Positions 2,950 to 19,601 of a DNA stretch of 26,478 bases are shown here, piece by piece. How positions within the stretch are numbered: the stretch's first letter is position 1; each line of letters starts with the position of its first letter. This DNA is from a virus. Its lineage: Duplodnaviria > Caudoviricetes. Under the pieces are notes generated by a model. That model was given only the letters and a program-made list of their open reading frames with translations. It was not told the origin of the DNA and ran no database searches. A program made the position numbers and the translations under genes. The stretch spans positions 1 to 26,478 of the IMG/VR virus record IMGVR_UViG_3300022867_000061. One strand, 5' to 3'.

Positions 2950-2950
2950 A

Positions 2951-4057: not shown

Positions 4058-4060
4058 TAT

Positions 4061-4394: not shown

Positions 4395-4425
4395 AAGTTT
4401 TCTAAATGTTATAAGGGGTGTTATC

Positions 4426-4451
4426 TAAGGGGGATATTACTACCCCCCTTA
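4426..4451 (-). terminator. GC-rich hairpin after capsid/decoration genes (terminator or 3' stabiliser)
   Basis: TAAGGGGG...CCCCCTTA inverted repeat in the intergenic gap; no strong U-tract. Confidence 0.5.
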
Positions 4452-4465
4452 AAGTTATCTATCTA

Positions 4466-4903
4466 TTAGTTATGATCAGTTTCATCGATACCTGATACAT
4501 CACATAGTACTGCCCAAACACGGATTTTACCCGCACTTGAATCTGCACTTAATGCAAGTACATCTAGAGTATCTGCACTAGCAACAACAAGATTAGCTGT
4601 TGCTGTAAGCAGACTATAACCTGCTGCGTTAGTATCACCATCAACAAAGTTATCAACGTCTACACCTGTTATACCTAAGTCCATAGTAACTGAACTTGAT
4701 AATGCAGTAAGTACTTCGATTCCTGCTTGCATGATCAATGTTTCTGCAGGGATATCAAGAGCTTGAACTATATCTCCTGTTGCTGTTCCTGTTGCACCAT
4801 TAATCGCTGCTATGTCGATTGTGTTTTCTACTAAGTAAGGTGTTCTACCATTAGACGGATGTCCTGTAGTACCACCTACTCCTGTTTTGTCGTAAGTTGC
4901 CAT
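4466..4903 (-). CDS. capsid decoration / minor capsid protein
   Basis: 145 aa, beta-rich, directly after MCP, strong AGGAG SD. Confidence 0.65.
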   Translation of the reverse strand: MATYDKTGVGGTTGHPSNGRTPYLVENTIDIAAINGATGTATGDIVQALDIPAETLIMQAGIEVLTALSSSVTMDLGITGVDVDNFVDGDTNAAGYSLLTATANLVVASADTLDVLALSADSSAGKIRVWAVLCDVSGIDETDHN

Positions 4904-4929
4904 ATTCTATTTCTCCTTCTAAGTTAGAA

Positions 4930-5871
4930 TTAACCGATTGTTATAACACCAGAGTAAACTGCTTCAGTTCTTAGAACTTTTCTTCCAAAAACGTGAAGAC
5001 CTCTTACGATGTCTGAAAATGAATCAGGGTCTCTGATAAGTTCCGTTTTCGCAATATGGTTTGCAGTTGCTACTGCACCTTGATGTCCATAAAGGAAAGC
5101 GTACTCATTAGAACCTGCTGATCCAAATGTTTTGTTTGCTGCTGATCCACTTGATACTGCTATAGCATTAGTAGTGTACATTCTAAACCCAAATAAAGGT
5201 CTATCTGTAATCATACCATTTCTCATAGCTGAAGCTGATCCGTCTGCCATAACAGATTGATCAACGATTTTAGCACCTGCTTTTCTAAGTTGTTGATAGA
5301 AAGCTGGTGGTGCAACGAACCATCTATTTTCTTCTGGTACATCGTTACCATCAAGAACTGTTTTAGCTGCTGACATAATATCTGTTAATGTGTCAACTGC
5401 TGCATCACCGTCAATAGGTGAACCGTCTGTTCCTGTATTAGCTGCTGAAGTACTCGCACCTGAGTAAATTGCACTTAATACATTAAAGTCGTAGTTCTTT
5501 TTAAGTGCATAAGCACCTGAAGAAGTTGCAAGAGCTTCAAAGTTTACATGTGATTGTCTTTCTTCGATGTCATCTACTTTAAACGCAAAGTACGAACCTT
5601 GGTCGACAGTCAATTGAATTTGATCGTCTGCAAGTGTTTCTGTGTTTACTGTTTGACCTCTAGCGTAGTCATTCACCGTAATAGTCGGCTCTTTTATTAT
5701 ATTTACTGTGTCGCCAAAATTTTCAATTTCTCCAGCGTAATCAGTGTTTGTAATGTCTTCTACAACTGATGCTCTTCTGAAAAACTTTTGAACCTTCTGA
5801 CTATAAATTGCTGGAGCCCAATTACCTGATGGTAAATTTTGGTATCCAGTTGCTTTTCCCATTGTTGCCAT
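4930..5871 (-). CDS. major capsid protein (HK97 fold, P22-coat-like; HMO-2011/cobavirus-type)
   Basis: NLPSGNWAPAIYS, ITNTDYAGEIENFGDTVNI, F.VDDIE..QS, VPEENRW.V, RDPDSFSDIVRGLHVFGRKVLR motifs. Confidence 0.95.
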   Translation of the reverse strand: MATMGKATGYQNLPSGNWAPAIYSQKVQKFFRRASVVEDITNTDYAGEIENFGDTVNIIKEPTITVNDYARGQTVNTETLADDQIQLTVDQGSYFAFKVDDIEERQSHVNFEALATSSGAYALKKNYDFNVLSAIYSGASTSAANTGTDGSPIDGDAAVDTLTDIMSAAKTVLDGNDVPEENRWFVAPPAFYQQLRKAGAKIVDQSVMADGSASAMRNGMITDRPLFGFRMYTTNAIAVSSGSAANKTFGSAGSNEYAFLYGHQGAVATANHIAKTELIRDPDSFSDIVRGLHVFGRKVLRTEAVYSGVITIG

Positions 5872-5900
5872 AATGTTTGCCTTTGTTTATAGTTGTTAGT

Positions 5901-6848
5901 TTAAGGTTGAATCCTACCTTCTCTTGATGCGTCATCGATCTCTGCTTCAAACTTCTCAAACGTTCGTCTATCCATCTTACCAATTTCAGAATTAGACCAG
6001 ATTTTCTTTGTGGGAATATCTGATTCTGTAGCTTTACTAGTTTTTGTTATAGCTTTAGCTGCTTCTTTCTTAACAGCTGTTCCCTCTTTCTTATTTAATT
6101 TACTAGTACCTTGATCCATTTTATATAGATCAATTGCTCTGCCAGCTAATTGTGCATTAGATGTATTTTCATACAACCAACTTTGAATAACTGGATCTTG
6201 CTTACTAGCCCATTCATGAAACTCATCTTTCTGACGAATCTCACTAAAGTCAGGGTGTGCTTTTAACAACTCCACTTCAGCTTTTTCTTTACTAACTTGT
6301 TCTTGTTGAACTTGAAGACTTTGGTATTTCTCCTCAATCTCTTTTGCTCTAGCATCAGCCTTTGTCATAGCTATGGTTTCAACCATATCATAAACATCGG
6401 GATACTCCTGTTTCCAAGCATCTAATTCATCCTTAGATTTAGGTGGAACAAACTCTTTAGTAGATGTTTCCAATTGCGTTCTTAAAGTTCTAACTTCATC
6501 TTTGTGCTTAAATAAAGTAGAATCATAGTGTTTTTTTAAATCGTCATAACGTTTCTTAAAAACACGATCTTCTGCATTTTCAGGGCGTTCAGTTGAAGGA
6601 GTAGCATTAATATCCGAGCTTGCAATTTCTTCAGATGTTTCTGTGTCCTTTTGAACGGTTGCTGCTTCTGCTTGTTCTTGATTAAACTTATTTAATTCAC
6701 CTTTTGCGAATGCTTCAGTTTCTGCATCATCAACATCATCTCTGTGTTTTTGATACATTGCTTTGCCTTCAGGTTTTTTAAAAAGTTTAGTCTCTTGTTT
6801 AGCTTCTGTTTCATTTGAAACTTCAGCTAAGTTTTTTTCTTCTTCCAT
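5901..6848 (-). CDS. capsid scaffolding protein
   Basis: Acidic and coiled-coil; FKKRYDDLK, HPDF.EI...F.EW, C-terminal EIDDASREGRI; directly upstream of MCP. Confidence 0.85.
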   Translation of the reverse strand: MEEEKNLAEVSNETEAKQETKLFKKPEGKAMYQKHRDDVDDAETEAFAKGELNKFNQEQAEAATVQKDTETSEEIASSDINATPSTERPENAEDRVFKKRYDDLKKHYDSTLFKHKDEVRTLRTQLETSTKEFVPPKSKDELDAWKQEYPDVYDMVETIAMTKADARAKEIEEKYQSLQVQQEQVSKEKAEVELLKAHPDFSEIRQKDEFHEWASKQDPVIQSWLYENTSNAQLAGRAIDLYKMDQGTSKLNKKEGTAVKKEAAKAITKTSKATESDIPTKKIWSNSEIGKMDRRTFEKFEAEIDDASREGRIQP

Positions 6849-6864
6849 TATTTTATCCTCATAG

Positions 6865-6895
6865 GTTGAGTGCCTTATGGATAAGGGTAGCTCAC
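6865..6895 (-). promoter_or_regulatory. structured leader hairpin upstream of scaffold SD
   Basis: Minus-strand GUGAG-CUAC-CCUUA-UCCA-UAAGG-CA-CUCAAC stem-loop ending 4 nt before the GAGG SD. Confidence 0.55.
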
Positions 6896-6917
6896 TTCCA
6901 TAATTTGTGGGCTAAAA

Positions 6918-7466
6918 TTATACTAGACCTTGATCTATTGCATCTGTATCTTCTGGCATAGCATTAGGCTCTTGAGCCATCATACCATTAGGATTAGATG
7001 CTTGTACATTTTCAGGTGGCACATTATTGGTATCATCTGATTGTGACTCAGATAATTCTGTAACGAATCCTTGAATGGATTCTTGTTCTGTATTGCTAGG
7101 GTATTTTTTTCTAGCGAAATTCTTTACGACTGATACTGGTAGTATAACGTTTTCTTCAGCAGATGTAAACTGCGATATTACGTCACTAGCTTCAGGTATA
7201 ATTTTTGTTAGTATACTTGAAAGGCTTGGTGATAGTACCATATCTAATTGTTGTTTTTCTTCGTCTGATAAGTTATTTAATTTTTCTATAACAGCAGGAT
7301 CTTTTAATTCTGGCTTCTGTGCTATTGGTGCAACTGCTGCTGGTGCTTTCTGTTCTTGTGGTTGAGCTGGTTGTTTTAAGTTTGACATGTCAGGTGCTTC
7401 AGCTATCTTAGCTGGGCTATTCATTAAACCTGTTGTAGTAACTTCGCCTCCTGGTCCTATTGCCAT
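6918..7466 (-). CDS. acidic, largely disordered putative virion/ejection protein
   Basis: Start re-called to MAIGPGG at 7466 (TAATG overlap with upstream stop); P/Q/E-rich. Confidence 0.65.
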   Translation of the reverse strand: MAIGPGGEVTTTGLMNSPAKIAEAPDMSNLKQPAQPQEQKAPAAVAPIAQKPELKDPAVIEKLNNLSDEEKQQLDMVLSPSLSSILTKIIPEASDVISQFTSAEENVILPVSVVKNFARKKYPSNTEQESIQGFVTELSESQSDDTNNVPPENVQASNPNGMMAQEPNAMPEDTDAIDQGLV

Positions 7467-8803
7467 TATGCTCTTCTCCAATGTGTTAAATTATATTTAC
7501 TAATTTGTTTATCACTTACAAAGTTACCTAGTGCCCAACATACGGGTTCACCTATACCTGCATATATTCTTCCAAGTAAATCAAACTTACCTTCGTTTAA
7601 TCTCCATGCAATATCATTTGCTCTGTGTTGTGCAATGTGTTTCCACATCTTTCTATATCTAGGGTATTTCTGCATATGTTTTACAGTTGGTTCTGCCCAA
7701 AGTAAATAACCTTTAACATGTGTTATAGATAATGTTTTAAATGTAAATTTTGTATCTCTTACCCAATCTCTAGTAGATAATTCTCCTGTTCTGTGTAGGT
7801 CTGTGCAAATAACTCTTCCGCTATCTGAACCACCTCCGCCTCCACCTTCTCCACCAGTTGCTCCTGGACTTGTATCTGTTGCAGTTTCTTTTGCTTGCTT
7901 ATAAGATGCAGCTTGTGTTTTCATGTTTGCAGTATCTGATTTAAATTTATCAGACATAGGTTTATTAGTTTTCTCACGTCTTGCAATTGTTGCTTCTCTA
8001 GTAGCTACTCTTTTATTACCAGCATTTTCTAAATTACCAAAGTCTGAAGTTCTATTCATACCTGCATATAAATCTGTTGCAGGATTACCAGATATTCTTT
8101 GGCTACCTTCGTTAGTATTAAAGTATCCTTTGTTTACTTTTTGTACAGCTGTTTCTTTTGGTAACATACCTGCTATCATTTTAGCTCCAGCCAAAGATGG
8201 ACTAACTATAGCACCTAACACTCTCCCACTCATTTGAAGTGCTTTATTACTTTTAACAGAGTCTATTACACCTGATACAGTATCTTGTACTGCTGATGTA
8301 GCTCTTGATTTTATACTAGGTGGCTTACTATACTTAACACCAGTTTGACCCCGTAAAATTCCATCTTGATATTGTGGCTGTATTGAATCTGTGGCACCAA
8401 TACTTTCTTGTGGTGCTGCTTGATCTGCTTTAGTTTGTCCAGCTTTTATATCCTGAGTTTGTCCATATGCAATATTAGTCATAGGATCACCAACATTTCT
8501 AACTGTAGGTTTATTTACGTCTGCAGTTTTAAGCATAGGTGTAGATGTATCTTGTTGATCTGCCCCACCACCATAAGTATTCATTGGTGTAAATACTTCT
8601 GTAGTTTGTGCTTTAATAGTATCTTCTGTAGCTTTCTTAGTTGTATCAGCAACACTTGTAGTATCACTAGTTTTTAAATCAGGTAAATTTAATTTATTTA
8701 CTTGTTTAAAGCCTACTGATTTTAAATTGTAATTACCACTAGCATCTTGTTCTAATTCGTAAGTACCACCTCCAACTCTTGATGTATCAAATGTATTTGC
8801 CAT
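7466..8803 (-). CDS. putative internal virion/ejection protein with Gly-linked C-terminal VICT domain
   Basis: 445 aa; low-complexity T/D/Q/K-rich body, then GGEGGGGGGSDSGRVICT and a ~115-aa helical domain; located between portal and scaffold. Confidence 0.6.
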   Translation of the reverse strand: MANTFDTSRVGGGTYELEQDASGNYNLKSVGFKQVNKLNLPDLKTSDTTSVADTTKKATEDTIKAQTTEVFTPMNTYGGGADQQDTSTPMLKTADVNKPTVRNVGDPMTNIAYGQTQDIKAGQTKADQAAPQESIGATDSIQPQYQDGILRGQTGVKYSKPPSIKSRATSAVQDTVSGVIDSVKSNKALQMSGRVLGAIVSPSLAGAKMIAGMLPKETAVQKVNKGYFNTNEGSQRISGNPATDLYAGMNRTSDFGNLENAGNKRVATREATIARREKTNKPMSDKFKSDTANMKTQAASYKQAKETATDTSPGATGGEGGGGGGSDSGRVICTDLHRTGELSTRDWVRDTKFTFKTLSITHVKGYLLWAEPTVKHMQKYPRYRKMWKHIAQHRANDIAWRLNEGKFDLLGRIYAGIGEPVCWALGNFVSDKQISKYNLTHWRRA

Positions 8804-8804
8804 A

Positions 8805-9014
8805 CTATTCTTCTTTATTCCTTTTAATTGTTTCCTTTAGACTGAGGATCTTGCGAAGCAAAACCAGCTTCCCCTGGCATCGGTACATTACCTGTTCCGA
8901 TATTGCCACCTCCATTTCCTGTTGGATCTGTTGGCGAAGCTCCTGGAGGTACTCCTCCCATATTGCCCATTGGACTTGGTTGTCCACTATTGCCTGTATT
9001 CGTTTGATTTCCAT
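8805..9014 (-). CDS. small helical protein overprinted on the portal C-terminus
   Basis: GGGGATGG SD-like sequence; W..YL..L....MEVA....MYRCQGK...LR resembles the small gene that typically follows podovirus portals; stop lies 1 nt before the next ATG. Confidence 0.72.
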   Translation of the reverse strand: MEIKRIQAIVDNQVQWAIWEEYLQELRQQIQQEMEVAISEQVMYRCQGKLVLLRKILSLKETIKRNKEE

Positions 9015-10893
9015 TTACCATCCCCATTATTTGTGCATATATTGCTGCTTTCTCTGGATCATTAACCAATTGATCTGGATCAATGTCTAGTGACTTAGCA
9101 ACTTCTTTTAAACATGTATGCCATTTAACAAAAGGTGCTAACGATGGGTTAGACGCTGTTTGCATAAATGTCATTAGTCTTTGTGATCTTACTTCCTTCT
9201 GCATCAAAGAAGATGTTCCTTGTGCTTTAATATCTAGATCACCTTGTATCTCTGGTCTTTCACTATTGAATTGCATGTTCCAATGAAACAATGAATTACC
9301 TAGGGGCTTTAATAAATAGTCATCAATGTTTTTAATAACTGTTTTAATACTTAATGCTGCAGCACCCATCAACATAGACATACCTGCTGCCGTTCTTGTA
9401 GTTGATTGTACTCCAGTTGTACCATGTGAGTACGATGGTATTCCAGTTGACTCATCTGCTAGTTGTCTGAATCTATCAAACATCATTAAATTTTCATTAG
9501 CAGTATTTGGAAACTTAATACCATGTATCGCTTGACCTGGCTGTCCACTCTGTCTTCTAAAAATTTTACCAGGGAATACTTTCATATCTTGTCCTGGTAC
9601 TAACATTGTTTCATCAACATCAAATACTAAATTACCTGATAGTGCTAAGTTATCAATTGCCATTCTTGCATGACCATTCATAACTTGTTGTGAATCTTGC
9701 ATGTTCTCTGGTATACCTACACCAAAGAATTGATAAGGGTTTAACTCATACGGACAAACCATATAAGGTATTCTTTTTGGTGAGAAAGGATTTTCTACTA
9801 CTCTTAAAACTTTACCACCACATATCCAAACGTTAACAGATATAACATCTAATTCATCATCATATTCAAAATCTAGTTCTTCTGCTAATTGTTTGCTTAT
9901 TACACCCCAATATTCTAATACTTCAAATCTATTTTTATATAGTGTTGAAGTGTTTTCTCTATCATACAAAGAAGATTCATATCCTCTTGTTTGATAGTTT
10001 GGTCCCATGTCTAAACATTCTCTAATCTTTTCAGCATTAAACATAGGTTTCTTTGCAAGTTCTGCAAATTGTTCTCTGTTGAAAGAATGTCTTTGAATTA
10101 CATATTCAGCATCATTCATATTAGTTGCATTAGGATCTGGGTAGAAATCCCAACATGATACTGCTTCAATACCTGGTACGTCTTTACCAATCTCCATCAT
10201 TGCTGATGCCCCAGTTTCCTCATCTGTAGAAAACTTGTATTGTGTTTTTACATTTGTAAATGGACCTTTTAAAATTCCTGTACCTAGTAAAGCCATTTCA
10301 AAAAGTACATGTCTCATAACTGAGATAGCATCACTCTCTTCTAACTGATCGTGAATTACTTTTTGCATTTTAGATGCTGCCATTGCAGCTGGCTCTATCT
10401 GTGGTTGTGTTTTTAAATCAGGAGCATCTCCCTCTTCAAAACCTACATTCATATACTCTTGTGCTAGATCTTTCATTAAAGATTCTGCTGTAGCACCTTT
10501 TGGTATTCCACCACCATCACCTGGAAAACCATATGGGCTTTCTGTTTTTGGTTGTTGTGGATCTTGTTCTTTCTTTGGATTAAGATGAGCATACTCTGCT
10601 ACACCTTCTGGCATTGCTGTAGGTGTTACACCAATTGGAAACTTACCTGCTGAAAACAGCACTTCAATAAGTTGACCAAACGCAGCAAGTACCTTAGTCT
10701 TTGTTACTTTAACAAATACTTTAGATTTCTCACTATCACGAAAAGTTTGTTCTGGACCATATAGTCCTCTATAGTTTCTGTAAGCAGATAGCCATCTCTT
10801 CTCATCTTGAAGTCTTGCTGTTTCTGCTTGACTGAACTTTTCTCTTACGTATCCTACAAACGGATCGTAGTTATCCTTTTCGTTATTATCCAT
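8824..10893 (-). CDS. portal protein
   Basis: 689 aa; W..AYRNYRG, VKVTKTKVLAA, GTGILKGP, WDFYPDP.A, YELNPYQFFGVG, RMAIDNLALSG, RTAAGMSMLM. Confidence 0.95.
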   Translation of the reverse strand: MDNNEKDNYDPFVGYVREKFSQAETARLQDEKRWLSAYRNYRGLYGPEQTFRDSEKSKVFVKVTKTKVLAAFGQLIEVLFSAGKFPIGVTPTAMPEGVAEYAHLNPKKEQDPQQPKTESPYGFPGDGGGIPKGATAESLMKDLAQEYMNVGFEEGDAPDLKTQPQIEPAAMAASKMQKVIHDQLEESDAISVMRHVLFEMALLGTGILKGPFTNVKTQYKFSTDEETGASAMMEIGKDVPGIEAVSCWDFYPDPNATNMNDAEYVIQRHSFNREQFAELAKKPMFNAEKIRECLDMGPNYQTRGYESSLYDRENTSTLYKNRFEVLEYWGVISKQLAEELDFEYDDELDVISVNVWICGGKVLRVVENPFSPKRIPYMVCPYELNPYQFFGVGIPENMQDSQQVMNGHARMAIDNLALSGNLVFDVDETMLVPGQDMKVFPGKIFRRQSGQPGQAIHGIKFPNTANENLMMFDRFRQLADESTGIPSYSHGTTGVQSTTRTAAGMSMLMGAAALSIKTVIKNIDDYLLKPLGNSLFHWNMQFNSERPEIQGDLDIKAQGTSSLMQKEVRSQRLMTFMQTASNPSLAPFVKWHTCLKEVAKSLDIDPDQLVNDPEKAAIYAQIMGMVNGNQTNTGNSGQPSPMGNMGGVPPGASPTDPTGNGGGNIGTGNVPMPGEAGFASQDPQSKGNN

Positions 10894-11172
10894 CTAGTCC
10901 TTTTTAAATTGTCCTGTTGGCTCTAACTTCTTTTTATCTTTAACTGCTTTCTTTAAATTAGTTAGTTCTGCTTCTGTTAAAGTAGGATTCATACTTAACT
11001 CTTTAGCAGTTTCTAAATTAACTGCTGAGTATCCTTTCATCTTAGAAGCATTAATATCCATTCCAGATATATCAGCTTTATAATTTTTAGTTAAAGATTC
11101 CTTATCAGCTTTATACTTATCAAACATCGTATACTTAGGATGTTCGTTAGTATATTTTTTATCTGTAAGCAT
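10894..11172 (-). CDS. hypothetical Lys-rich protein
   Basis: 92 aa; stop abuts the portal start. Confidence 0.65.
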   Translation of the reverse strand: MLTDKKYTNEHPKYTMFDKYKADKESLTKNYKADISGMDINASKMKGYSAVNLETAKELSMNPTLTEAELTNLKKAVKDKKKLEPTGQFKKD

Positions 11173-11174
11173 GA

Positions 11175-11369
11175 CTAGTAGTCTCTTTCTTCAGCCATTC
11201 TAAATATTGATGGATCAACTTTTGATTTAGCACCTGGCTTATCATTGCTGTCTCCAGCAGTTGAACCCTTAGTAACTTTTGAATTAGGGTCTATTGCTAA
11301 TTTTTCATTTCTAACTTTAGCCACATCAGCTGAAAGTTCACCGTGTTTGTATCTTTTATTTATATCCAT
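11175..11369 (-). CDS. small protein, paralogue of 11607-11834
   Basis: Start re-called to MDINKRYKHGELS (AAGGAG SD); ends FRMAEERDY. Confidence 0.75.
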   Translation of the reverse strand: MDINKRYKHGELSADVAKVRNEKLAIDPNSKVTKGSTAGDSNDKPGAKSKVDPSIFRMAEERDY

Positions 11370-11607
11370 TGCTATTCTCCTTTTTTGTATAGCCTTGGTA
11401 GCCATAGAATTTACTATCTGTAAGTTTTTTAGCTCCCATTTTTTTTCTTCTTTCCATTACTAAATGAGCTTTAAGTTTTTCTTTAAACTTTGCTTTCTTT
11501 TCTGGTGGATTCTTTTCGTTAAACTTTTTTTTCTTTTTTTCTTTTATTTCTGATTGAAGTTGTTTATCATCAACAAGCTCCATAAAACTATAGCTTTTGT
11601 CAGCCAT
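11356..11607 (-). CDS. very basic small protein
   Basis: 83 aa with poly-Lys tracts; TAATG coupling to the upstream gene. Confidence 0.65.
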   Translation of the reverse strand: MADKSYSFMELVDDKQLQSEIKEKKKKKFNEKNPPEKKAKFKEKLKAHLVMERRKKMGAKKLTDSKFYGYQGYTKKENSNGYK

Positions 11608-11834
11608 TAGTAATCCTTCTCATCAGCCAACTTATTAAAGTTAGCATCTAATTGGCTTCTGAATTTTTTAGGTTCATGATAGCCAAAATTTCCATCTTGA
11701 GTTTCAGCAGCCCTATCTTCTCTTTTGATACTTATCTTAAGATCTCCAGGTTCTTGATTAGGTTGCTTACCTTCAGGAGTAGAGCTTAGATCACCTTGCT
11801 TAACTTTAGCTTTGGGGTCAAATTTCATTTCCAT
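11607..11834 (-). CDS. small protein, paralogue of 11175-11369
   Basis: KVKQGDLS...FNKLADEKDY; AGGA SD. Confidence 0.75.
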   Translation of the reverse strand: MEMKFDPKAKVKQGDLSSTPEGKQPNQEPGDLKISIKREDRAAETQDGNFGYHEPKKFRSQLDANFNKLADEKDY

Positions 11835-11841
11835 ATTGTTC

Positions 11842-12132
11842 CTATATTTTTATTTTTTTTATTTGTAAAACGTTTGTTGTTGGGAGAGTAGTATAACCAC
11901 CACCTGTCTTTACTTTACCATTATCTTCAAATATAAAATCTGACATAATGATAGTTCTTTTATCGTCTTGAAATACTAAGTATCCTAAACTACAACATAT
12001 TGCTGTGCTAGAACTTTTAATATCTGGAAGTTCAGCCCAGCCTGCATCTCCAACGATATCTTCCCATAATATCTGTACTAGATCATAAGGAAAATTCTTT
12101 TTATCTATAGTAGGTAACTTTACTTTTTTCAT
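11842..12132 (-). CDS. small beta-rich phage protein (LV.I.WED...GW family)
   Basis: GAGG SD; motif pattern often seen in phage proteins near terminases; function unknown. Confidence 0.7.
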   Translation of the reverse strand: MKKVKLPTIDKKNFPYDLVQILWEDIVGDAGWAELPDIKSSSTAICCSLGYLVFQDDKRTIIMSDFIFEDNGKVKTGGGYTTLPTTNVLQIKKIKI

Positions 12133-12144
12133 ATATCCTCTCTG

Positions 12145-13779
12145 TTAATATCCAAATATTTTATCTGAGGGGACAAAATTAGCTGTTCTATTACTGTTAC
12201 CAAATGCTTTGTTTGCATAACTTGTATGTATCGGTCTACTCATACATCCGTATCTTAGTGCATCATATGCGTGATCTTCTACGTGTGTATTAATATCTTC
12301 AGGATTACTATCATCTAATGGTAGTGTAGGAAATGTTCTTAACAAATTTCTACAATTAGAAAATATACGAATGCCTGGTTCTTTATCTTCAACCTTTAAT
12401 CGTTTGTGGATTTCTAGCTTTCCACTAATTCTACTTCTTCCTGTTCTATCAGAAGGTCTCCAACGACACCCAGCTTGAATCATTGTTTCTGCAATGCTTG
12501 GACCTATATCACCACGTCTTGCCCATGTACTAGCGTCTAAAACCCCGTAGCGTATGTATTCTCCACTCTCTAGGTCTAAGACTTTCTTTGCGAAAATATC
12601 TGCTGTAATCTTTTGGGTATACAACTCTCTATAAACCCATAGATTATTATCATAATCAATAGCAAACCATAAACAACAAGCAGGAGAACTGTAACCCCAG
12701 TCAGCAGCACGAAATCTTTGCCAGCCTTTAGGTATTTCAAAAGGTTCAACAACATGTAAGTCCCTATCAAATTCTGAGAATGCTGCATTAGAGAATGCAT
12801 CCCAATCTCCGTTTAAAAATTGCTTTCTTTGTACTTCTGGTAATGATGATAACATTGCATAGTAATCATCAGTCTGCATAAGGTAAGGATTGTCCTGTAA
12901 CTTAGCGGGTATAAACTTTCTAGTTATATACTTTGTCCCTGAAGGTGTAGAAATCTCTATGTTAAAAGCTGTATTAGGATCTATAGGATCCACAAACATC
13001 TCTTTAACCCATTGTGATCCAACATTACCTGGGTTACCTGTAGCCCTCATGTATACTGGTATACTCGGATCAACTGATCTAAGTGACGATCTTAGAAAAT
13101 TATATATATCTGGCGAAGGATATTGTGGAAGTTCGTCTATTCCTATCCATGTGTAAGACTGCCCTTGGTAACGTAATACGTCTGTCATGTTCTCTGCATA
13201 ACCAAACTCTATTTTTGCTCCTGATGGGAATCTCCATTCTTTTTCTTGCTCTCTCCATTTTGCTCCTGGATATGCTCTTGAGTATAATCTTTGAGAATGA
13301 TTAATCAAATCTCTTAACTCTGGCATAGTTCTACGAAGTAGTAGACAACGATGATGTTCTTTATGACAGTACCTTAGAGGATCTATTAACATGGCGTATG
13401 ATTTACCACCACCTCTTGCACCCCCGTAAAACACTTCTCGTTCTGATGCAGCTAAGAAATCTCTTTGTGGACCTTTGTTAGGTTGAAAGATTATCTCTTT
13501 ACCTGCTAGATGTTCCTGTACGTTTGCTGGAACTTCGTCTATTACGTCTTGGGTTATAAGCTGCTGTTCTTTTCCATCTAATACTTTGTCAATGGTTAAC
13601 AATTTATCCTTGACATTTTTTGCATGGATCTTAGCTGAACGTAAAGTTTGTTCTGCCTTTGCAACTTTTTTACGTGTTCTTGCTATTGCCTGCTTAGCCG
13701 ACTGCTTGGCTTTGGTCTTTACTTTCTTCTTTGGCTTTGGCAGCGGTATCTCTGGTAACTCTTTTTCTAAGTCCGACAT
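12145..13779 (-). CDS. terL: terminase large subunit
   Basis: Walker A GGARGGGKS, Walker B WIGIDE, coupling motif ATGNPG, nuclease ADWG and EDHAYDALRY. Start re-called to ATG (MSDLEKE) from the TTG at 13821. Confidence 0.96.
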   Translation of the reverse strand: MSDLEKELPEIPLPKPKKKVKTKAKQSAKQAIARTRKKVAKAEQTLRSAKIHAKNVKDKLLTIDKVLDGKEQQLITQDVIDEVPANVQEHLAGKEIIFQPNKGPQRDFLAASEREVFYGGARGGGKSYAMLIDPLRYCHKEHHRCLLLRRTMPELRDLINHSQRLYSRAYPGAKWREQEKEWRFPSGAKIEFGYAENMTDVLRYQGQSYTWIGIDELPQYPSPDIYNFLRSSLRSVDPSIPVYMRATGNPGNVGSQWVKEMFVDPIDPNTAFNIEISTPSGTKYITRKFIPAKLQDNPYLMQTDDYYAMLSSLPEVQRKQFLNGDWDAFSNAAFSEFDRDLHVVEPFEIPKGWQRFRAADWGYSSPACCLWFAIDYDNNLWVYRELYTQKITADIFAKKVLDLESGEYIRYGVLDASTWARRGDIGPSIAETMIQAGCRWRPSDRTGRSRISGKLEIHKRLKVEDKEPGIRIFSNCRNLLRTFPTLPLDDSNPEDINTHVEDHAYDALRYGCMSRPIHTSYANKAFGNSNRTANFVPSDKIFGY

Positions 13780-13960
13780 ATGATATGTATCTTTTCGTTT
13801 TTGCTGATAACCAAATAGCAACCTCTCGGTATGAACATGTTTTTAAAAATTTCTTTGCTTCTTCTAAAGCATCTAATTCAAATTGTATTGGCTCAATATA
13901 ATCTGTGTCTTCTGCTAATTTATATCCAAAAGGAATAGTTCTAGCTTTTCGTTTAATCAC
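13694..13960 (-). CDS. small DNA-binding protein (recombinase-DBD-like / HTH)
   Basis: IPFGY...SYREVA.WL......IS..GL.K pattern; overlaps the terL start. Confidence 0.75.
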   Translation of the reverse strand: MIKRKARTIPFGYKLAEDTDYIEPIQFELDALEEAKKFLKTCSYREVAIWLSAKTKRYISYVGLRKRVTRDTAAKAKEESKDQSQAVG

Positions 13961-14131
13961 TTAATTCTTTTTTTTCTTTTCTAAATCTTTTAATATTAAA
14001 TCAGATATTCTATTATTTTCTTTTATCTGTTTAGCACTAGCAACTTTAAGTATTTTTCCACCAGGTACAAATCTAGTTAGATCCTGTACTTTTTTTTTAT
14101 CTGGGTATGCATTTGAATAATTTTTGGTCAT
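13961..14131 (-). CDS. small basic protein (56 aa, absent from ORF track)
   Basis: MTKNYSNAYPDKKKVQDL...LEKKKKN; fills the gap between neighbours; AGGA SD. Confidence 0.6.
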   Translation of the reverse strand: MTKNYSNAYPDKKKVQDLTRFVPGGKILKVASAKQIKENNRISDLILKDLEKKKKN

Positions 14132-14132
14132 A

Positions 14133-14564
14133 TTAATCCTGCACTGGGGTTACGATTGATTCTTCTGGTTCATTCTTAGCTGGTAATATAAACATACCAT
14201 GCTTTAAATTCATATTGATATCTAATTGATCTTTCTTTACAATACCAATACGGTCTAATATTTGTTTTGCTGCTTCCATTCGGATACTAGCGTGTGGAGT
14301 TGTTCCATCTTCGTCTAACAAGTTTACCATTCTAGTTGCAGCCTTCGCAGAATGTATGGCTAAATAATTTTCTGCTCTTTTAACAATCTCGTCTTTTAAA
14401 TTACGCAGAACTTTAGGATATGAATGTTCTGAGTAACCTGCTAGCTCTCCTGCCTGTCTTGGATTTCCTTGGGCTTCTCCGAATAATGCGTCTAGAAACT
14501 TTTCCTGTGAGACCGTCAAGCTTTTCTTTTGAGTGTTTGTTGTAATAGAATCCATTGTTTGCAT
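14133..14564 (-). CDS. terminase small subunit-like HTH protein
   Basis: LT..QEKFL......GN..QA..LAGYS HTH typical of TerS; AAKQILDR.G; GGAG SD. Confidence 0.75.
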   Translation of the reverse strand: MQTMDSITTNTQKKSLTVSQEKFLDALFGEAQGNPRQAGELAGYSEHSYPKVLRNLKDEIVKRAENYLAIHSAKAATRMVNLLDEDGTTPHASIRMEAAKQILDRIGIVKKDQLDINMNLKHGMFILPAKNEPEESIVTPVQD

Positions 14565-14620
14565 TTACCAACTCCATGATTTCCTTGAAAGGAAGTTCTA
14601 GAGCTTTAGTGGGTATCAAG

Positions 14621-15103
14621 TTATTTTTTCTTTTTTAATTTTTTAAAGAACTCAGATCCAGTCTTAGAGGATTTGAATTTACTGAAGATGCTTTCTTTCT
14701 TCTCAGCACCTTTAGTTTTAGTAGGATCAAATCTATCTTCTCTCTTACCTTTAGTAGTTAAGTAGCCTTTACCACCTAACATGAATTTAGATTTACCTTC
14801 TTTAGTAGCAGCATCGAAAGCTTCTTTGAAAGATCTTTTCTTTCCTGGCATAACTTTAGCATCATCTCTGCTTTTTGCAGATTTGAACATGCTTTCTGCA
14901 GCATACATCTTAGATGTAGCAGCTTGATTTCTTTTACCTTGTGCAACTGAAGCTTTTGCAGCTCTTTTTTCTTTAGCTAGTCTTCCTTCGAAGATACTAC
15001 CAGTCTTTTTAACTTTTGTCCTTGCTTTATAAGCAGCCTTATTCTTATAAGTAACACCGTTTGCAACGATACTACCATCATCTTTAATTTTTATTCCAGC
15101 CAT
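14621..15103 (-). CDS. highly basic Lys-rich protein, first gene of the late arm
   Basis: 160 aa; AAGGA SD; contains the SFKEAFDAA.KEGK.KF..GGK.Y.T motif. Confidence 0.75.
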   Translation of the reverse strand: MAGIKIKDDGSIVANGVTYKNKAAYKARTKVKKTGSIFEGRLAKEKRAAKASVAQGKRNQAATSKMYAAESMFKSAKSRDDAKVMPGKKRSFKEAFDAATKEGKSKFMLGGKGYLTTKGKREDRFDPTKTKGAEKKESIFSKFKSSKTGSEFFKKLKKKK

Positions 15104-15242
15104 TTGTTTATATCCTTATTTGATTGTTAAACTTATGGGAATCCTAGGTGTTCCCTATAAATTGGTACAGTTTAGTGATGACCGATTGTGCATGAGTGCA
15201 TGCTGTAGTGTTTGTGTGTCCTTTTAAAGTGTACCTGATTCT

Positions 15243-15271
15243 AGTATACACACAAATATAACTTTTGTCAA
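15243..15271 (-). promoter_or_regulatory. sigma70 promoter for the morphogenesis operon
   Basis: TTGACA-17nt-TATACT on the minus strand. Confidence 0.85.
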
Positions 15272-15322
15272 GTACTAATTTAAATTATTTTTATATTAAA
15301 GCATTATTGTTAAAAATAATCA

Positions 15323-15351
15323 TTGACAAAAGGTAGAAGTGGGTGTATAAT
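15323..15351 (+). promoter_or_regulatory. consensus sigma70 promoter facing non-coding DNA
   Basis: TTGACA-17nt-TATAAT. Confidence 0.85.
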
Positions 15352-15765
15352 GTAATTAAGGTTACACGGGGGGGTTTATATATAATATATACTTAAATAT
15401 ACATACCCCCTAGGGAACACCCTAGCATATAGCCAGGAGATTTACAGAATATTGTAACCTAGTATGTAGCCACAGGGTGGTTTACAGGGGAATTGGGGAT
15501 TTTAGTACGATCCTATATGTATATATGTAGTACCCCCCTAGTGCCCTTGCCTGCCCCCTTAAAAATATTCCCTCGTGTAAAACTTAGAAATTATCTGGGG
15601 GATATCTTGTGGTTTCGTTTGGGGAGAGTTGGGGGGAGTGTAAAATTTTGTAAGATACACAACCCAATGTTAACCTAGTGTTAATTTAATTAGTACCTAG
15701 TTAAATCATAGTAGTATGATAATCATACCTAAAATAGAGCTTCATTTGATTTATAGTACAGATAC
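15352..15765. other. non-coding G/C-run- and CCTAG-rich region, probable genome terminus / packaging region
   Basis: No credible ORF; homopolymeric G and C runs; six CCTAG copies; lies between late and early arms. Function is inferred. Confidence 0.5.
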
Positions 15766-15797
15766 AAAAAAAGCCCTGATGTTTTAAGTCAGGGCTT
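15766..15797 (-). terminator. intrinsic terminator of the 15817-16686 gene
   Basis: AAGCCCTGA/TCAGGGCTT stem with A7 on the plus strand (U-tract on minus). Confidence 0.8.
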
Positions 15798-15816
15798 AGT
15801 TGTTAGCTAGTATTAA

Positions 15817-16686
15817 CTATGCAATCTTAGAAATTCTAACCAAAGACTGCTTATTGTGGTCTATAACTTTAAACTCAACAGACTCAATATTTACAATGTT
15901 AGCATTTTTCATACTACCATTTTTATCAAAGTCTTTTAAGTCTCTCTCGTATTGCTCAACTAATCTTAAGCTGAATTGTGCTATCTTTCTCAACTCAACT
16001 ATTTCACTAGTACCATAGTCATTTACTAGATAATCGGCTTTTTTGTTTCTAGTTTGCATCTCAGCATTTAAAAAGTTTTTCATTGTTTTTAAATTGCTTA
16101 ATACAGTCTCATCATTGTTAGGTGTTTGGGCTCCAGTTTTAACAACTGGGCTTATTTTATTCCATAACAATTCAAGCCCACGTGTACTCAAAGGTATTAG
16201 GCTTTCATCATTATTAGGCGTGTATTTAATTTCATTGTTTCCAGAAACTTTTAAGTTTGGATAAATGATATTAGATTGTGCAACTACTAACTTGTCTTTG
16301 ATAATAGCCTTAGTTTTGTCAGTATTAATTAAAACTAATGCTAATTTAACAGCACGAGAAACTAAATTTTCAAAAATATAGTTTCTAATTGGTTTTCCAT
16401 CAGCGTCCTTTTCATTAGGATAGTTAACCAGATTATACAACTTTTCTCTAATTGTAGTTAAATTAAAATAATCAGTTGTTTTTAATTTGTTAGTTTCACA
16501 ATGAGAATTAACTTCGTTGTAAAAATTAACAATCTTTAAACTTAAAGGTTGAATAGCTAAGAAACCAGTTTTTTCAATAGTTTCCGATACTTTCCATAAG
16601 TTTTTAACGTCACCCTCGCACACTTTATAAGCTTTGATACTAGCATAAAAGTCCACAGTTTCTGGTTTTTTTGTTTGTATTGTCAT
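15817..16686 (-). CDS. orphan protein (~289 aa), divergent from the early arm
   Basis: Long ORF; start re-called to MTIQTKK (AAGGA SD); has its own terminator; no recognised family. Confidence 0.8.
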   Translation of the reverse strand: MTIQTKKPETVDFYASIKAYKVCEGDVKNLWKVSETIEKTGFLAIQPLSLKIVNFYNEVNSHCETNKLKTTDYFNLTTIREKLYNLVNYPNEKDADGKPIRNYIFENLVSRAVKLALVLINTDKTKAIIKDKLVVAQSNIIYPNLKVSGNNEIKYTPNNDESLIPLSTRGLELLWNKISPVVKTGAQTPNNDETVLSNLKTMKNFLNAEMQTRNKKADYLVNDYGTSEIVELRKIAQFSLRLVEQYERDLKDFDKNGSMKNANIVNIESVEFKVIDHNKQSLVRISKIA

Positions 16687-16833
16687 TTTATTATCCTTGT
16701 TATGAATACCCAATAAATTTATATTTATTTTTAAAATATCCATATCCCTTTATCGCATTTTTAATAACATACGTCAAATTAATATTACATATATATGTAA
16801 TTAATATTATCTGGTGTCACGTGACACAGCATA

Positions 16834-16848
16834 GAACATTACAAGAAC
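16834..16848. promoter_or_regulatory. alphaproteobacterial-type LexA (SOS) box
   Basis: AGAACAttacaAGAACA matches GAAC-N7-GAAC; located in the divergent intergenic region. Confidence 0.65.
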
Positions 16849-16895
16849 ATCAACCCTTGATTGTATTGTGGTATTAATACCATAGTGTGATAAAT

Positions 16896-16924
16896 TTGAC
16901 ACAGTATCTCATAAGTTGTATTAT
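16896..16924 (+). promoter_or_regulatory. sigma70 early promoter
   Basis: TTGACA-17-TATTAT. Confidence 0.8.
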
Positions 16925-16991
16925 ATATATATATTAATTAGATATAATATTTATATATAAAATATATATCTTTAAATGCGAGGTTAAAAAA

Positions 16992-17237
16992 ATGAGCGTT
17001 GAAAACTTACAATATAAAATAAATGATAGACTTGAAAAAAGATTATCAAGCATTGAAAAAATAGTGATTGATTTAAAAGAAGATAAAAAATTATTAAATC
17101 AATTGTTAAGCGTTGCAACTGTAATTCTCTTTAATGAAAGTAGTTTAAAAAGTTTAACAAATGACAATATAAAAAATGTAATGACACCTAAAATTCATGA
17201 GGCGATTAAGTCTATAAATGAGGGCTTAAAAATATGA
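16992..17237 (+). CDS. hypothetical early protein (coiled-coil N-terminus)
   Basis: GAGGT SD; 81 aa. Confidence 0.75.
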   Translation: MSVENLQYKINDRLEKRLSSIEKIVIDLKEDKKLLNQLLSVATVILFNESSLKSLTNDNIKNVMTPKIHEAIKSINEGLKI

Positions 17238-17383
17238 TTGAATTATCTTTTATAATTGGTTGCTTATTAATTGTTTTAATAGGTGTTTATTTAATGAAAG
17301 CTAATCAACTTTTTATTGATGAGCAAAATAGAAAGTACATCAAGCCCATTAATAAAGTTAAACCAAAGTTAAAAACAAAATGA
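17234..17383 (+). CDS. 49-aa single-TM micro-protein
   Basis: MIELSFIIGCLLIVLIGVYLMKANQ...; ATGA overlaps at both ends. Confidence 0.7.
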   Translation: MIELSFIIGCLLIVLIGVYLMKANQLFIDEQNRKYIKPINKVKPKLKTK

Positions 17384-17463
17384 AAACAGCATTAATATTT
17401 ATATCAATCATGGCAATAAGTTATTTATTGCTACATCTATTCAGTAAATCAGTAGGTTTATAA
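17380..17463 (+). CDS. 27-aa hydrophobic peptide
   Basis: MKTALIFISIMAISYLLLHLFSKSVGL; ATGA overlap; followed by a terminator. Confidence 0.6.
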   Translation: MKTALIFISIMAISYLLLHLFSKSVGL

Positions 17464-17486
17464 CAAAAATACTAACTTACAAAATT

Positions 17487-17526
17487 GCGAGGGGGCAAAA
17501 TTAAAATTGCCTTCTCGTTTTTTTTT
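17487..17526 (+). terminator. intrinsic terminator
   Basis: GCGAGGGGGCAA/TTGCCTTCTCGT stem plus T-run. Confidence 0.85.
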
Positions 17527-17536
17527 ATCCTTCCAC

Positions 17537-17565
17537 TTGACACAGCTAATACTACCCTGTAAGCT
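17537..17565 (+). promoter_or_regulatory. sigma70 promoter
   Basis: TTGACA-17-TAAGCT. Confidence 0.7.
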
Positions 17566-17601
17566 GAGATTATGTTTAATTTAATTATGGAAGGAGAGAA
17601 T

Positions 17602-17673
17602 ATGAAAAGCATTTTATATGTAGCTGTCATGTGGCTGTGTTTAGGTATGTTAATAAGTCTAATGGGAATATAG
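17602..17673 (+). CDS. 23-aa hydrophobic peptide in its own transcription unit
   Basis: AAGGAG SD; MKSILYVAVMWLCLGMLISLMGI; in-frame upstream ATG at 17572. Confidence 0.65.
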   Translation: MKSILYVAVMWLCLGMLISLMGI

Positions 17674-17696
17674 GTATATGAAAAGTGAACAGCACT

Positions 17697-17734
17697 AGCC
17701 CTATCGGTAGCAATATCGGTAGGGCTTTTTTTTT
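17697..17734 (+). terminator. intrinsic terminator
   Basis: AGCCCTATCGGTA-GCAA-TATCGGTAGGGCT plus T-run; GNRA loop. Confidence 0.88.
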
Positions 17735-17745
17735 GTCGGTACTAT

Positions 17746-17774
17746 TTGACACAACAAATACACTATGGTATTAT
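17746..17774 (+). promoter_or_regulatory. sigma70 promoter
   Basis: TTGACA-17-TATTAT with TG extended -10. Confidence 0.8.
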
Positions 17775-17802
17775 GAATACATATCAAACAAAGGAGAAAC
17801 TA

Positions 17803-18039
17803 ATGGCAGAACAAACAGACGCACATGATTTTGTGCAATCCCGAAACAAAGCTATACGATTTGATAGGGAGAAAAGGCAGAAGAAAATAAAAGACAACTT
17901 AGAACTGCATCAAGATACTCAGAATACTATTAAGGGTATGGCAGAAAAACTAACAAGTCTTAACAAATCAGCAGATGAGGTAGAGGCAAATCTTAAAAAA
18001 ACTATTCAAGATTTTTTCTCACAACCTACTGTTAAATAA
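17803..18039 (+). CDS. hypothetical coiled-coil early protein
   Basis: Start re-called to ATG 17803 (AAGGAG SD); the track's TTG start is the -35 box. Confidence 0.75.
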   Translation: MAEQTDAHDFVQSRNKAIRFDREKRQKKIKDNLELHQDTQNTIKGMAEKLTSLNKSADEVEANLKKTIQDFFSQPTVK

Positions 18040-18131
18040 AATTAGCCAAGTGCCACTCCCTCTCAAAGTTATGGCACTATAACTAATACGGCTGATGTGT
18101 ACTTTGTGGTCATGTCAGCCGTTAAAAAATT

Positions 18132-18293
18132 ATGATAGATAAAAAATTAGCATTAAAATCAAGACACCTTAGGTTATCTAAGCTATTGCATAGCCTACTT
18201 ATAAAATATCTCGAAGATAAAAAAGTCTACTCAGACCTTTCAAAAATCAGACAGCTAACAGACGAGTTAGATAAACTACTTGACATAGAGTAG
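18132..18293 (+). CDS. 53-aa Leu-rich helical protein (absent from ORF track)
   Basis: MIDKKLALKSRHLRLSKLLHSLL...DKLLDIE; no clear SD. Confidence 0.55.
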   Translation: MIDKKLALKSRHLRLSKLLHSLLIKYLEDKKVYSDLSKIRQLTDELDKLLDIE

Positions 18294-18308
18294 CAGTTAA
18301 TATATACT
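18280..18308 (+). promoter_or_regulatory. sigma70 promoter
   Basis: TTGACA-17-TATACT. Confidence 0.82.
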
Positions 18309-18339
18309 ACGAACTGATTAATCAAACAAGGAAAACCAT

Positions 18340-18627
18340 ATGGATAATGACAAACGCATACCTAAATTGCGTAGGCAAGTAAGGGTATGCACTATAAACA
18401 TCATGGCTTGGCAGGAAAACAATCCAAGTCCTGATAAAGAAAAAATCATTGAGTTAAAAAGACTTCAAATAAAACTTAATGATGCTTTAACTAATTATCT
18501 TTTACATGTGCAAACAGATGATTGGGATAAACACACATATATATCTCAACCATTAGATGAAAATAGGTTGCAAGAACAACAAGAGTTTCTTGACACTAAT
18601 CAATTTGTAGAAGGTAGTGGTAATTAA
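18340..18627 (+). CDS. hypothetical early protein
   Basis: AAGGA SD; 95 aa. Confidence 0.75.
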   Translation: MDNDKRIPKLRRQVRVCTINIMAWQENNPSPDKEKIIELKRLQIKLNDALTNYLLHVQTDDWDKHTYISQPLDENRLQEQQEFLDTNQFVEGSGN

Positions 18628-18783
18628 TTGACTGCTATACTCTCATTACTTGTGTGGCTTATAAGCACATGGGTAGTAGCAAGAGTTGTATTCAAAAACA
18701 AAAGGGGGTTGTCCATTTGGGCAATCCCTTTTTTTTGTGTGAGTGTTTGGTTGGCTAGTCTTATAATCATAGCAACACAATGA
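18628..18783 (+). CDS. 51-aa two-TM micro-protein
   Basis: TTG directly after the upstream stop; MTAILSLLVWLISTWVVARVVF-KNKRG-LSIWAIPFFCVSVWLASLIIIATQ; ATGA overlap downstream. Confidence 0.6.
   Translation: MTAILSLLVWLISTWVVARVVFKNKRGLSIWAIPFFCVSVWLASLIIIATQ
18700..18736 (+). terminator. terminator-like hairpin inside the two-TM ORF
   Basis: GGGGGTTGTCC-ATTT-GGGCAATCCCTT plus T-run. Confidence 0.7.
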
Positions 18784-18977
18784 TTGAATTATTATTATTT
18801 TTATTTACTGACTTTGATAATCGTATGGGTAATTTCCATACAGTTAAACATAAGTTTAATACTTATCAAGAATGTAATGACTACATAAAAGAACACACCA
18901 TAGAAGAAAATATATACACACCCACAGGTCAAGTCATAGGTCTTACTTACTGTAAGCCTGTTGACACAGACAAATAA
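18780..18977 (+). CDS. small protein with F.TY.EC...YCKP motif
   Basis: 65 aa; short hydrophobic N-terminus; two Cys. Confidence 0.65.
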   Translation: MIELLLFLFTDFDNRMGNFHTVKHKFNTYQECNDYIKEHTIEENIYTPTGQVIGLTYCKPVDTDK

Positions 18978-19025
18978 ATCATATACTATGTAAGGGTAAT
19001 CAACGAGAGTTGGTTGCCCTTTTTT
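18961..19025 (+). promoter_or_regulatory. promoter-in-terminator cassette 1
   Basis: TTGACA-17-TACTAT, then AAGGGTAATCAAC-GAGA-GTTGGTTGCCCTT and T-run. Confidence 0.8.
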
Positions 19026-19069
19026 GTTGAGCCTAGTCTTTAAGTAACATGGCACTAGATATTAAAGGG

Positions 19070-19160
19070 GGGTGTAGTAATTTACTATGGCTATGTTAGT
19101 AAGGAGTTGTAAATCTAAGCTGTAAATCCAGAACATAGCATGAGAGTTGAGGCTACACCC
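19070..19160 (+). ncRNA. candidate rod-like structured RNA / RNase III-type site
   Basis: GGGTGTAG/CTACACCC outer stem and GCTATGTT/AACATAGC inner stem in a non-coding leader. Confidence 0.5.
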
Positions 19161-19187
19161 TAATACAATTAACTAATAGGAAAATAT

Positions 19188-19601
19188 ATGAAACAAACAG
19201 ACATACAAGTTGGTAAAGTTTCAGATTATCTTTATGCTTTAATGACACAAACCAAAGCGAAAAAGTTTCGTGCAGGTTTTGTTAAAAAAAATGGAGACTA
19301 TCGGACAGGTAGATTTGATTTAGTAAATCGTTCTACTTGGAAACAAACTGATGGCACTATGTATAAACGTAAAGGTAAAGAAAGAACTACCAATGCTGAT
19401 GAGTACATACTAGCACATGACCTAGATAAAAAAGCACCCAGAAATATTTCTGTTGCTACTTTGAAGTGGTTTAGTGTTGGTAAAAAAGTGTATAAAATCA
19501 ATCACTTAGAGGTAAATGATAGCATAACAGTTGTTATGTTTGAGAAGGTAAAATTTACTGCTCTTAAAAATCTAATCAAGCGAGGAGTTATCAATGAGTG
19601 A
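19188..19601 (+). CDS. SH3/Sm-like beta-barrel protein (WYL_2/DUF2693-like)
   Basis: F...FVKKNGDYR....DL...DLDKKAPR motif. Confidence 0.6.
   Translation: MKQTDIQVGKVSDYLYALMTQTKAKKFRAGFVKKNGDYRTGRFDLVNRSTWKQTDGTMYKRKGKERTTNADEYILAHDLDKKAPRNISVATLKWFSVGKKVYKINHLEVNDSITVVMFEKVKFTALKNLIKRGVINE

Follow-up and report, generated by a model that had tools for sequence, protein, structure and literature searches.

The window, that is, the whole stretch of 26,478 nt that was analysed (IMG/VR record IMGVR_UViG_3300022867_000061), can be assigned to an HMO-2011-type podovirus of the HTVC033P subgroup by the homology of its large terminase subunit (TerL), portal and capsid proteins and by its gene order; the DNA polymerase hallmark lies outside the window. 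TerL (12145..13821, minus strand; PHROG 979, E 9e-61) is closest, among named phages, to that of Pelagibacter phage HTVC033P, with 74.6% identity, the next best matches reaching about 48-52%. HTVC033P, of HMO-2011-type subgroup IX, is among the most abundant known SAR11 viruses (pelagiphages) according to the available text of PMC9038755. A blastn comparison of 15100-15620 with named phages gave a convincing match to HTVC033P only. The genome is laid out in two arms, one with the terminase, portal, capsid and tail genes leftward from 15103 and the other with small genes rightward from about 16990. The promoter-pair region described below lies in the gap that separates the late arm from a 308-aa gene (15817..16743, minus strand), which lacks a PHROG or Pfam match, faces the pac region and has a counterpart at the same place in HTVC033P. 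This gene ends in an intrinsic-terminator-like hairpin (15767..15797, minus strand; z -4.6), situated before the pac region, that would keep its transcript out of that region.

Within the late arm, the putative small terminase subunit (TerS; 14133..14564, minus strand) is 70% identical to HTVC033P gp83 and falls into a look-alike cluster of the Atlas in which Terminase_2 is found on 39% of members. A 160-aa basic ORF (14621..15103, minus strand) occupies a variable slot between the leader and ORF A, both discussed below, and the first gene differs among relatives; the slot holds highly variable genes (basic K/A-rich proteins or the MKFEANIPSYL family) or none. On the other side, the small ORFs of 16896-18989, plus strand, are interspersed with three strong terminators and four sigma70 promoters of the early type that are close to consensus (TTGACAC/T), and a 12-bp palindrome lies at about 16817-16828.

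Two sigma70-type promoters stand back to back in the gap. P-left (15243..15271, minus strand) heads the late arm of terminase, portal, capsid and tail genes, matches the consensus at 11 of 12 positions, is the sole match of at least 11 in 1-15300 and is conserved. P-right (15323..15351, plus strand) is a perfect consensus promoter (12/12) and faces the pac-side block. The two are 23/29 identical and are the two best promoter matches within 12000-19000. The earlier note was right on the places of both promoters and on their likeness, and it was equally right that no credible ORF lies past P-right, where the sole frame of at least 50 aa up to 15800 is a 61-aa one with a TTG start. Relatives were taken from TerL-selected contigs (the best 80 of 598) and from at least 120 pattern-selected loci; a promoter upstream was demanded of the latter so as to remove those that matched by chance. 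The left promoter was detected in 42 TerL loci among the best 80 of 598, and the opposite promoter was present in all 37 that have at least 100 nt beyond it; it was also found in 18/18 HTVC115P-like loci. Since the pair occurs in HTVC033P as well as in the 37/37 TerL-selected contigs, it is not an artefact of assembly, as the earlier note had considered it might be.

The gap between the -35 hexamers changes in helical steps of about 10 bp: among 116 distinct loci listed it measures 31-33 (12 loci), 40-41 (59), 50-52 (44) or 60 (1), and the corresponding A/T-tract spacer of the window occupies 15272..15322. The likeness of the two promoters to each other seems mostly to reflect a common promoter class. 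Both belong to the TTGACAAAA...TATAAT class, their spacers are identical at a mean of 9.4/17 positions in 85 relatives versus 12/17 in the window, and the early promoter at 18280 is already 20/29 identical to P-right. Promoters resembling TTGACAA...GTATAAT also occur inside the late operons of HTVC115P (L203, 3894) and HMO-2011 (L204, 22773 and 23529) and point to a late-promoter class across the phage group.

The inter-promoter spacer of 80 of the 95 relatives listed (e.g., L027, L042 and L067) contains a TGYGACA/TGYGGCA-type motif in a semi-palindrome resembling TGYGACA-N3-5-TGTC, which is degenerate in the window (15295-15312). Read on the opposite strand, TGYGACA gives GTCRC, the right half-site of the RegA/PrrA consensus in the available text of PMC5435760, whereas the second half-site is loose here and the motif is degenerate in the window. 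The late/pac switch proposed below may, through this RegA-like motif, sense the redox state of the host. At the other end of P-right, an inverted repeat (15351..15366, plus strand) begins with the final base of the -10 hexamer and spans the predicted start site. Though its sequence changes, pairing is kept in many relatives and is weak or absent in others. Its loops are of 3-6 nt, and in the initiating complex it could fold on the non-template strand.

Directly past P-left lies a leader RNA motif of about 72 nt (15164..15235, minus strand). Its closing stem P1, which begins about 1-2 nt past the predicted start site, pairs 15235-15225 with 15174-15164, comprising 11 bp with one C-C mismatch in the window and 10-11 bp overall. 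It encloses an internal loop (AAAG/AUCAC), a 3-bp stem P2 (GAC/GUC) and an A/C-rich apical loop with an optional hairpin. Across relatives the internal loop is near-invariant as AAVG/AUCAC, the invariance of the core being partly built in for the pattern-selected loci; P2 varies to GAU/AUU in L076 and AAU/AUU in L077. The apical loop is 30-36 nt long and 71% A+C in the 99 distinct leaders listed.

The pairing of P1 is maintained despite changes of sequence. In the 99 distinct leaders listed, a mean of 9.2 out of 10 positions pair with the leader's own partner strand versus 5.4 with the strand of another leader. In a subset of 54 sequences, 90.6% of cells are paired, double changes occur at 10 of the 11 P1 pairs, and the covariation score is 0.586 compared with 0.154 for shuffled and at most 0.215 for slid alignments; covariation of the inner pairs was examined on 98 sequences. 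Parsimony on a TerS tree of 88 loci, which is independent of the leader, inferred 38 double changes, 6 single changes that keep the pair and 15 breaks, the latter mostly at the mismatch and the outer pairs, and P1 pairs 3-8 underwent 20 double changes versus 0-4 in slid registers. The single changes at P1 pairs 1-4 and in P2 give U-G or G-U when read on the minus strand, and these inner-pair wobbles favour that strand. The minimum free energy of the motif has a z of -2.9 in the window, and four relatives folded singly gave z values from -0.75 to -3.6; therefore, the case for the leader rests on covariation and not on stability.

The leader core lies 20-23 nt past the -10 hexamer in 88 of the 99 leaders listed, 29-31 nt in 10 and 63 nt in 1. 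The first start codon, by comparison, is found anywhere from 5 to 98 nt from the leader, and the first gene itself varies. The element is thus anchored to transcription and not to a ribosome site. It accompanies the left promoter in 42/42 TerL loci in which that promoter was detected (best 80 of 598), many of these being in the training set of the leader RNA model, R1. With R1, one copy was found in the window and one in HTVC033P, and no leader match in HTVC103P, HTVC115P, HMO-2011 or phiM6; because the first look of R1 was loose, a diverged leader could be missed. Full-length phage copies score 46-79 bits and the divergent copy L077 scores 35.5. A pattern scan of GTDB returned 68 scattered matches, five of which score 21-29 bits with R1, and these were taken as chance. 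Rfam gave no match in 15100-15690 at E<=1, and eight relative loci gave only a weak miRNA match. We found no description of the element in the literature, and the readable tables of the IMG/VR structured-RNA catalogue (PMC10690425) do not contain the core motif, which may already stand in its alignments as an unnamed candidate.

Further hairpins occur around the leader. An extra A/U-rich hairpin of about 40 nt is present just before the motif in L027 and after it in L042 and L052. An optional second hairpin with the palindromic centre CCUAGG (15137..15155, minus strand) follows the leader in the window and is absent in about 41 of the 99 leaders listed, most of which have a start codon within about 25 nt. 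Its centre stays self-complementary as the sequence changes, with CCUAGG, GGUACC, CUGCAG and CUCGAG observed in the window, L076, L077, L081 and L084, and forms a possible kissing loop or two-fold DNA site.

The 5' part of the TerS gene carries a second, overlapping reading frame, ORF A (14413..14619, minus strand), which is unannotated in HTVC033P and encodes 68 aa with a predicted helical N-terminal part and an Arg/Lys-rich tail. The frame is open in 90/90 distinct copies and has a start codon in 88 of them. A T that would stop ORF A is found at 0 of 363 synonymous TerS sites compared with 31-68% T at other sites, and the upstream part of the ORF A frame varies synonymously. Two codon choices yielding Arg persist in about 79/84 and 84/86 copies versus a background of 40%, related sequences not being independent of one another; the constraint of the TerS frame accounts for part of the Arg-rich tail. 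AlphaFold models three short helices and a disordered basic tail with modest confidence (pLDDT 69). ORF A had no match in Pfam, PDB or fold searches and only weak PHROG matches (best E 0.005); four unnamed homologues were found, and the Atlas clusters gave no common family. The idea of a TerS frameshift fusion was dropped, as the TerS core is closely preceded by an ATG in the copies listed. The leader is present in 71 of 79 loci selected by ORF A; the other eight have no promoter in the first 600 nt and appear to begin downstream of the leader. This co-occurrence suggests a partnership of the two and no more than that, because it amounts to one evolutionary event at the level of the clade.

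Past P-right, the sequence comprises a G7 run, an A/T stretch and CCCCCTAGGG-AACA-CCCTAG (15368..15425, plus strand), followed by a pac-side DNA block (15479..15560) with the elements GGTTWACA, ATTT, TATA, a G or C run and CCTGC, which is present with near-fixed internal spacing in 75 of the 76 relatives listed. The G run and the C run past P-right can often pair. The first 90 nt past the promoter nevertheless fold no better than shuffled sequences (mean z -0.3, 1/115 below -2), which lends no support to a structured RNA of the decoy kind that the earlier note had offered as one explanation. The distance from P-right to the block, in the relatives listed, is 138-143 nt (4), 146-151 nt (32), 156-159 nt (26), 168-171 nt (12) or 180 nt (1), and these steps of 10 bp could reflect gain or loss of repeat units of about 11 bp. 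The run within the block is C in 38 and G in 25 of the 75 relatives listed; the block is likely a DNA-level site, because such flipping between C and G is as expected for one. A conserved non-coding block with DNA-type spacing constraints was found upstream of TerS. Similar blocks were recognised by eye in HTVC103P, HTVC115P, HMO-2011, the two roseophages CRP-1 and CRP-738, ctYwJ313 and phiM6.

Position 1 of phiM6 is a pac site predicted by PhageTerm, and the phage is reported to package by a pac/headful mechanism (PMC6256558). The CCCTGC anchor of phiM6 lies 62 nt inside its pac cut. By way of two short anchors, and at 46% TerL identity, this would place a packaging cut of the window near 15606 (15596..15616). 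Packaging would then run leftward from about 15606 through both promoters. The 29 contig ends examined showed no stacking at the predicted cut. A pac-ward promoter was not found in HMO-2011, CRP-1, CRP-738 or phiM6. The position of P-right relative to the pac-side block fits transcription-coupled packaging, which had been suggested before among other explanations.

The HTVC115P sister group possesses the promoter pair in 18/18 loci, with a gap of 13-16 nt, and runs a similar late operon without the leader, which was found in 0/37 loci; ORF A was not found there either. In most members of the group (L203, L360-L404), about 7 nt separate P-left from the TerS start codon, leaving the message near-leaderless. 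HTVC115P-like P-right would, in many loci, yield an RNA of about 90 nt that ends at a terminator-like hairpin before the block. The P-left spacer and the pac-side block of this group each contain GTTWACA, which suggests that one protein binds both.

Traces of expression come from contigs of relatives in metatranscriptomes, in four of six RNA runs, and such contigs indicate presence only, not strand, level or ends. In these four metatranscriptomes the late genes are covered, and X19 contigs cover the leader to about 15216. To the right of 15210 coverage is thin, with none in X21 and X24; X19 and X23 each provide single low-depth contigs within 15368-15622, that of X23 covering 15368-15456. Because the contigs lack strand, level and ends, the thin coverage does not argue against a plus transcript. 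One of the X23 contigs begins, behind GGG, close to where the plus transcript is predicted to start, which is a hint only.

The anatomy of the locus is well supported: two promoters, their spacing in steps of about 10 bp, a paired leader, an overlapping gene and a pac-side block. We tentatively read it as a late-gene and packaging switch of HTVC033P-like pelagiphages, a plausible arrangement, if still somewhat short of a probable one, in which a put/nut-like leader would be combined with transcription aimed at pac. P-left would start the message for the virion genes with the covarying leader at its head. The leader may then act on the transcribing host polymerase, in a put- or nut-like manner, by anti-pausing or by protection from Rho over the long operon, with the Arg-rich ORF A protein as its probable RNA-binding partner. 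A scan of the minus strand over 15.3 kb found only two weak 5-bp terminator-like matches, and therefore any antitermination must counter Rho or pausing. P-right, in turn, would send polymerase toward the predicted packaging start, and transcription toward the cut may help the terminase to load, as in T3/T7. We infer the function of the leader from its constant position relative to the promoter, the constraint on its loop and the basic protein that occurs with it.

Among known systems, the HK022 put RNA, as described in the available text of PMC9378689, is similar in being about 70 nt long and structured, and in lying directly past a phage promoter for host sigma70 at the head of a long operon. 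It binds the zinc-binding domain of beta' and suppresses pausing and termination. However, put consists of two stem-loops, occurs in two copies (putL and putR), serves early genes and needs no dedicated protein, whereas the present leader is one stem with a large loop, is found in one copy ahead of late genes and has no Rfam match. With lambda N/nut (available text of PMC2724277) the locus shares a promoter-proximal RNA element and, in the same operon, the gene of a small protein that has an Arg-rich stretch, but it has no boxA, no small hairpin of the boxB type and no symmetry; ORF A overlaps TerS, and its partnership is putative. A search for lambda boxA in 14750-19550 within one mismatch gave no match. 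By the features tested, the leader is not a member of either the nut or the put family.

Promoters directed at packaging have a parallel in T7 phiOR. The T3/T7 polymerase pauses at the concatemer junction and contacts the terminase to start packaging, according to the available text of PMC3276506, and the likeness to the present locus lies in a promoter directed toward a predicted packaging or terminus site. The promoter here is, in contrast, of host type and not one for a phage polymerase, the relative phiM6 is pac/headful, and no pause site was identified. The locus shares a G+C-rich block free of ORFs, located upstream of TerS and flanked by the late and early arms, with the phiM6 pac site (PMC6256558) and the direct terminal repeats of cobaviruses with their G+C-rich 5' ends (available text of PMC6775973); phiM6, however, has neither the leader nor an evident pac-ward promoter. 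The literature yielded nothing on late-gene control or the packaging start of HTVC033P-like phages, nor anything that establishes the type of their DNA ends, and the available main text of PMC9038755 mentions no promoters.

What the locus adds is an RNA motif that is well supported and not in Rfam, a so far overlooked overlapping gene as its candidate partner, and a predicted pac site beside a dedicated promoter. In the fullest form of the proposal, a new leader RNA and an Arg-rich protein hidden in TerS would provide antitermination independent of lambda, a second promoter in helical phase would load polymerase toward pac, and the switch, possibly read by host RegA, would couple virion-gene expression to the start of packaging; this combination as a whole we consider unlikely. 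If true, an antiterminator outside the lambdoid phages, protein-assisted or protein-free, would widen a small class.

The main rival, which is possible though improbable enough to stand second, is that the leader acts after transcription: its 5'-terminal stem would protect the late mRNA, and ORF A, TerS or a host protein would use the internal loop as an operator to control how the first cistron is translated. The onset of P1 right behind the predicted start site agrees with such a role, as do a start codon, often that of ORF A, at 5-15 nt past P1 in about 40 of the 99 leaders listed and the lack of strong intrinsic terminators to overcome in the late arm. The motif nevertheless stays fixed to the promoter where other genes and spacers of 35-98 nt part the leader from ORF A, and neither the near-invariant bases of the loop nor the constant size range of the apical loop follows from protection alone.

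The right half of the locus might also be explained by an origin of replication primed by an R-loop, composed of promoter, G run and A/T unwinding stretch, for which T4 ori, T7 phiOR and ColE1 are parallels; P-right would then not be a packaging aid. The G run starts 43-48 nt from the start of the -35 hexamer in 71 of 74 relatives listed, with an A/T-rich stretch behind it. Genes for primase, helicase and DNA polymerase are present in the phage group, and no annotated RNA polymerase was seen in the parts of HTVC033P that were examined. The spacing in helical steps tied to the pac-side block, together with the terminator-like hairpin about 90 nt into the transcript of the HTVC115P group, argues against an origin, and we regard it as doubtful.

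Release of the leader as a trans-acting small RNA of about 75-110 nt, serving as a packaging-motor RNA or a protein decoy and perhaps dimerising via the palindromic hairpin, is distinctly improbable. The preserved self-complementarity of the second hairpin and the proximity of the leader to the terminase genes would suit such an RNA, but that hairpin is missing from many leaders, no U-tract terminator follows, and an antisense partner for the 3' core was not found above control levels in five records. A reading of the leader as a hairpin of single-stranded DNA with primase sites of the T7 type (GTC) is very improbable. Although GTC stands on both strands of the GAC/GTC core in 94-97 of the 99 leaders listed, L076 and L077 lose both sites yet keep the pairing, and the leader is fixed to the predicted transcription start.

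The earlier note had based its interpretation on a pair of identical boxB-like hairpins, one on each transcript, in the manner of lambda nutL and nutR. The 11-mer TAGGGAACACC does occur exactly twice in the window, at 15157-15147 on the minus and 15411-15421 on the plus strand and thus once per transcript, and two matches were obtained in 0/100 shuffles. The rest of the claim did not hold, as conservation, the left fold and the loop all failed. Among 110 distinct loci listed, the exact motif is present on both sides in the window itself only, whereas 8 loci have it on the right alone, 1 has it on the left alone and 100 have it on neither side; a shorter 9-mer, GGGAACACC, is found on both sides in 9 of the 110 loci listed, all close relatives. 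On the minus transcript the hairpin with a GAACA loop is not the predicted fold, in which GGGAA pairs with UUCCC instead. On the plus side the loop is AACA, TATA, ATA, ACA, TATT or absent across relatives and is not of the GNRA type. With no boxA within one mismatch nearby, a symmetric nutL/nutR element is largely refuted by conservation and retains a very slight probability. The idea of antitermination behind it may still apply to another element, which the earlier note did not mention, namely the covarying leader at 15164-15235. The left copy lies within the optional second hairpin, and the right copy within the segment at 15368..15425, which shows no significant folding and belongs to a CTAG-rich zone. 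The density of CTAG is 16-20 per kb at 50-150 nt past P-right compared with about 4 per kb elsewhere in the window, and therefore the twin hairpins are best read, from these sequence features, as two members of local CCTAGG-type repeats.
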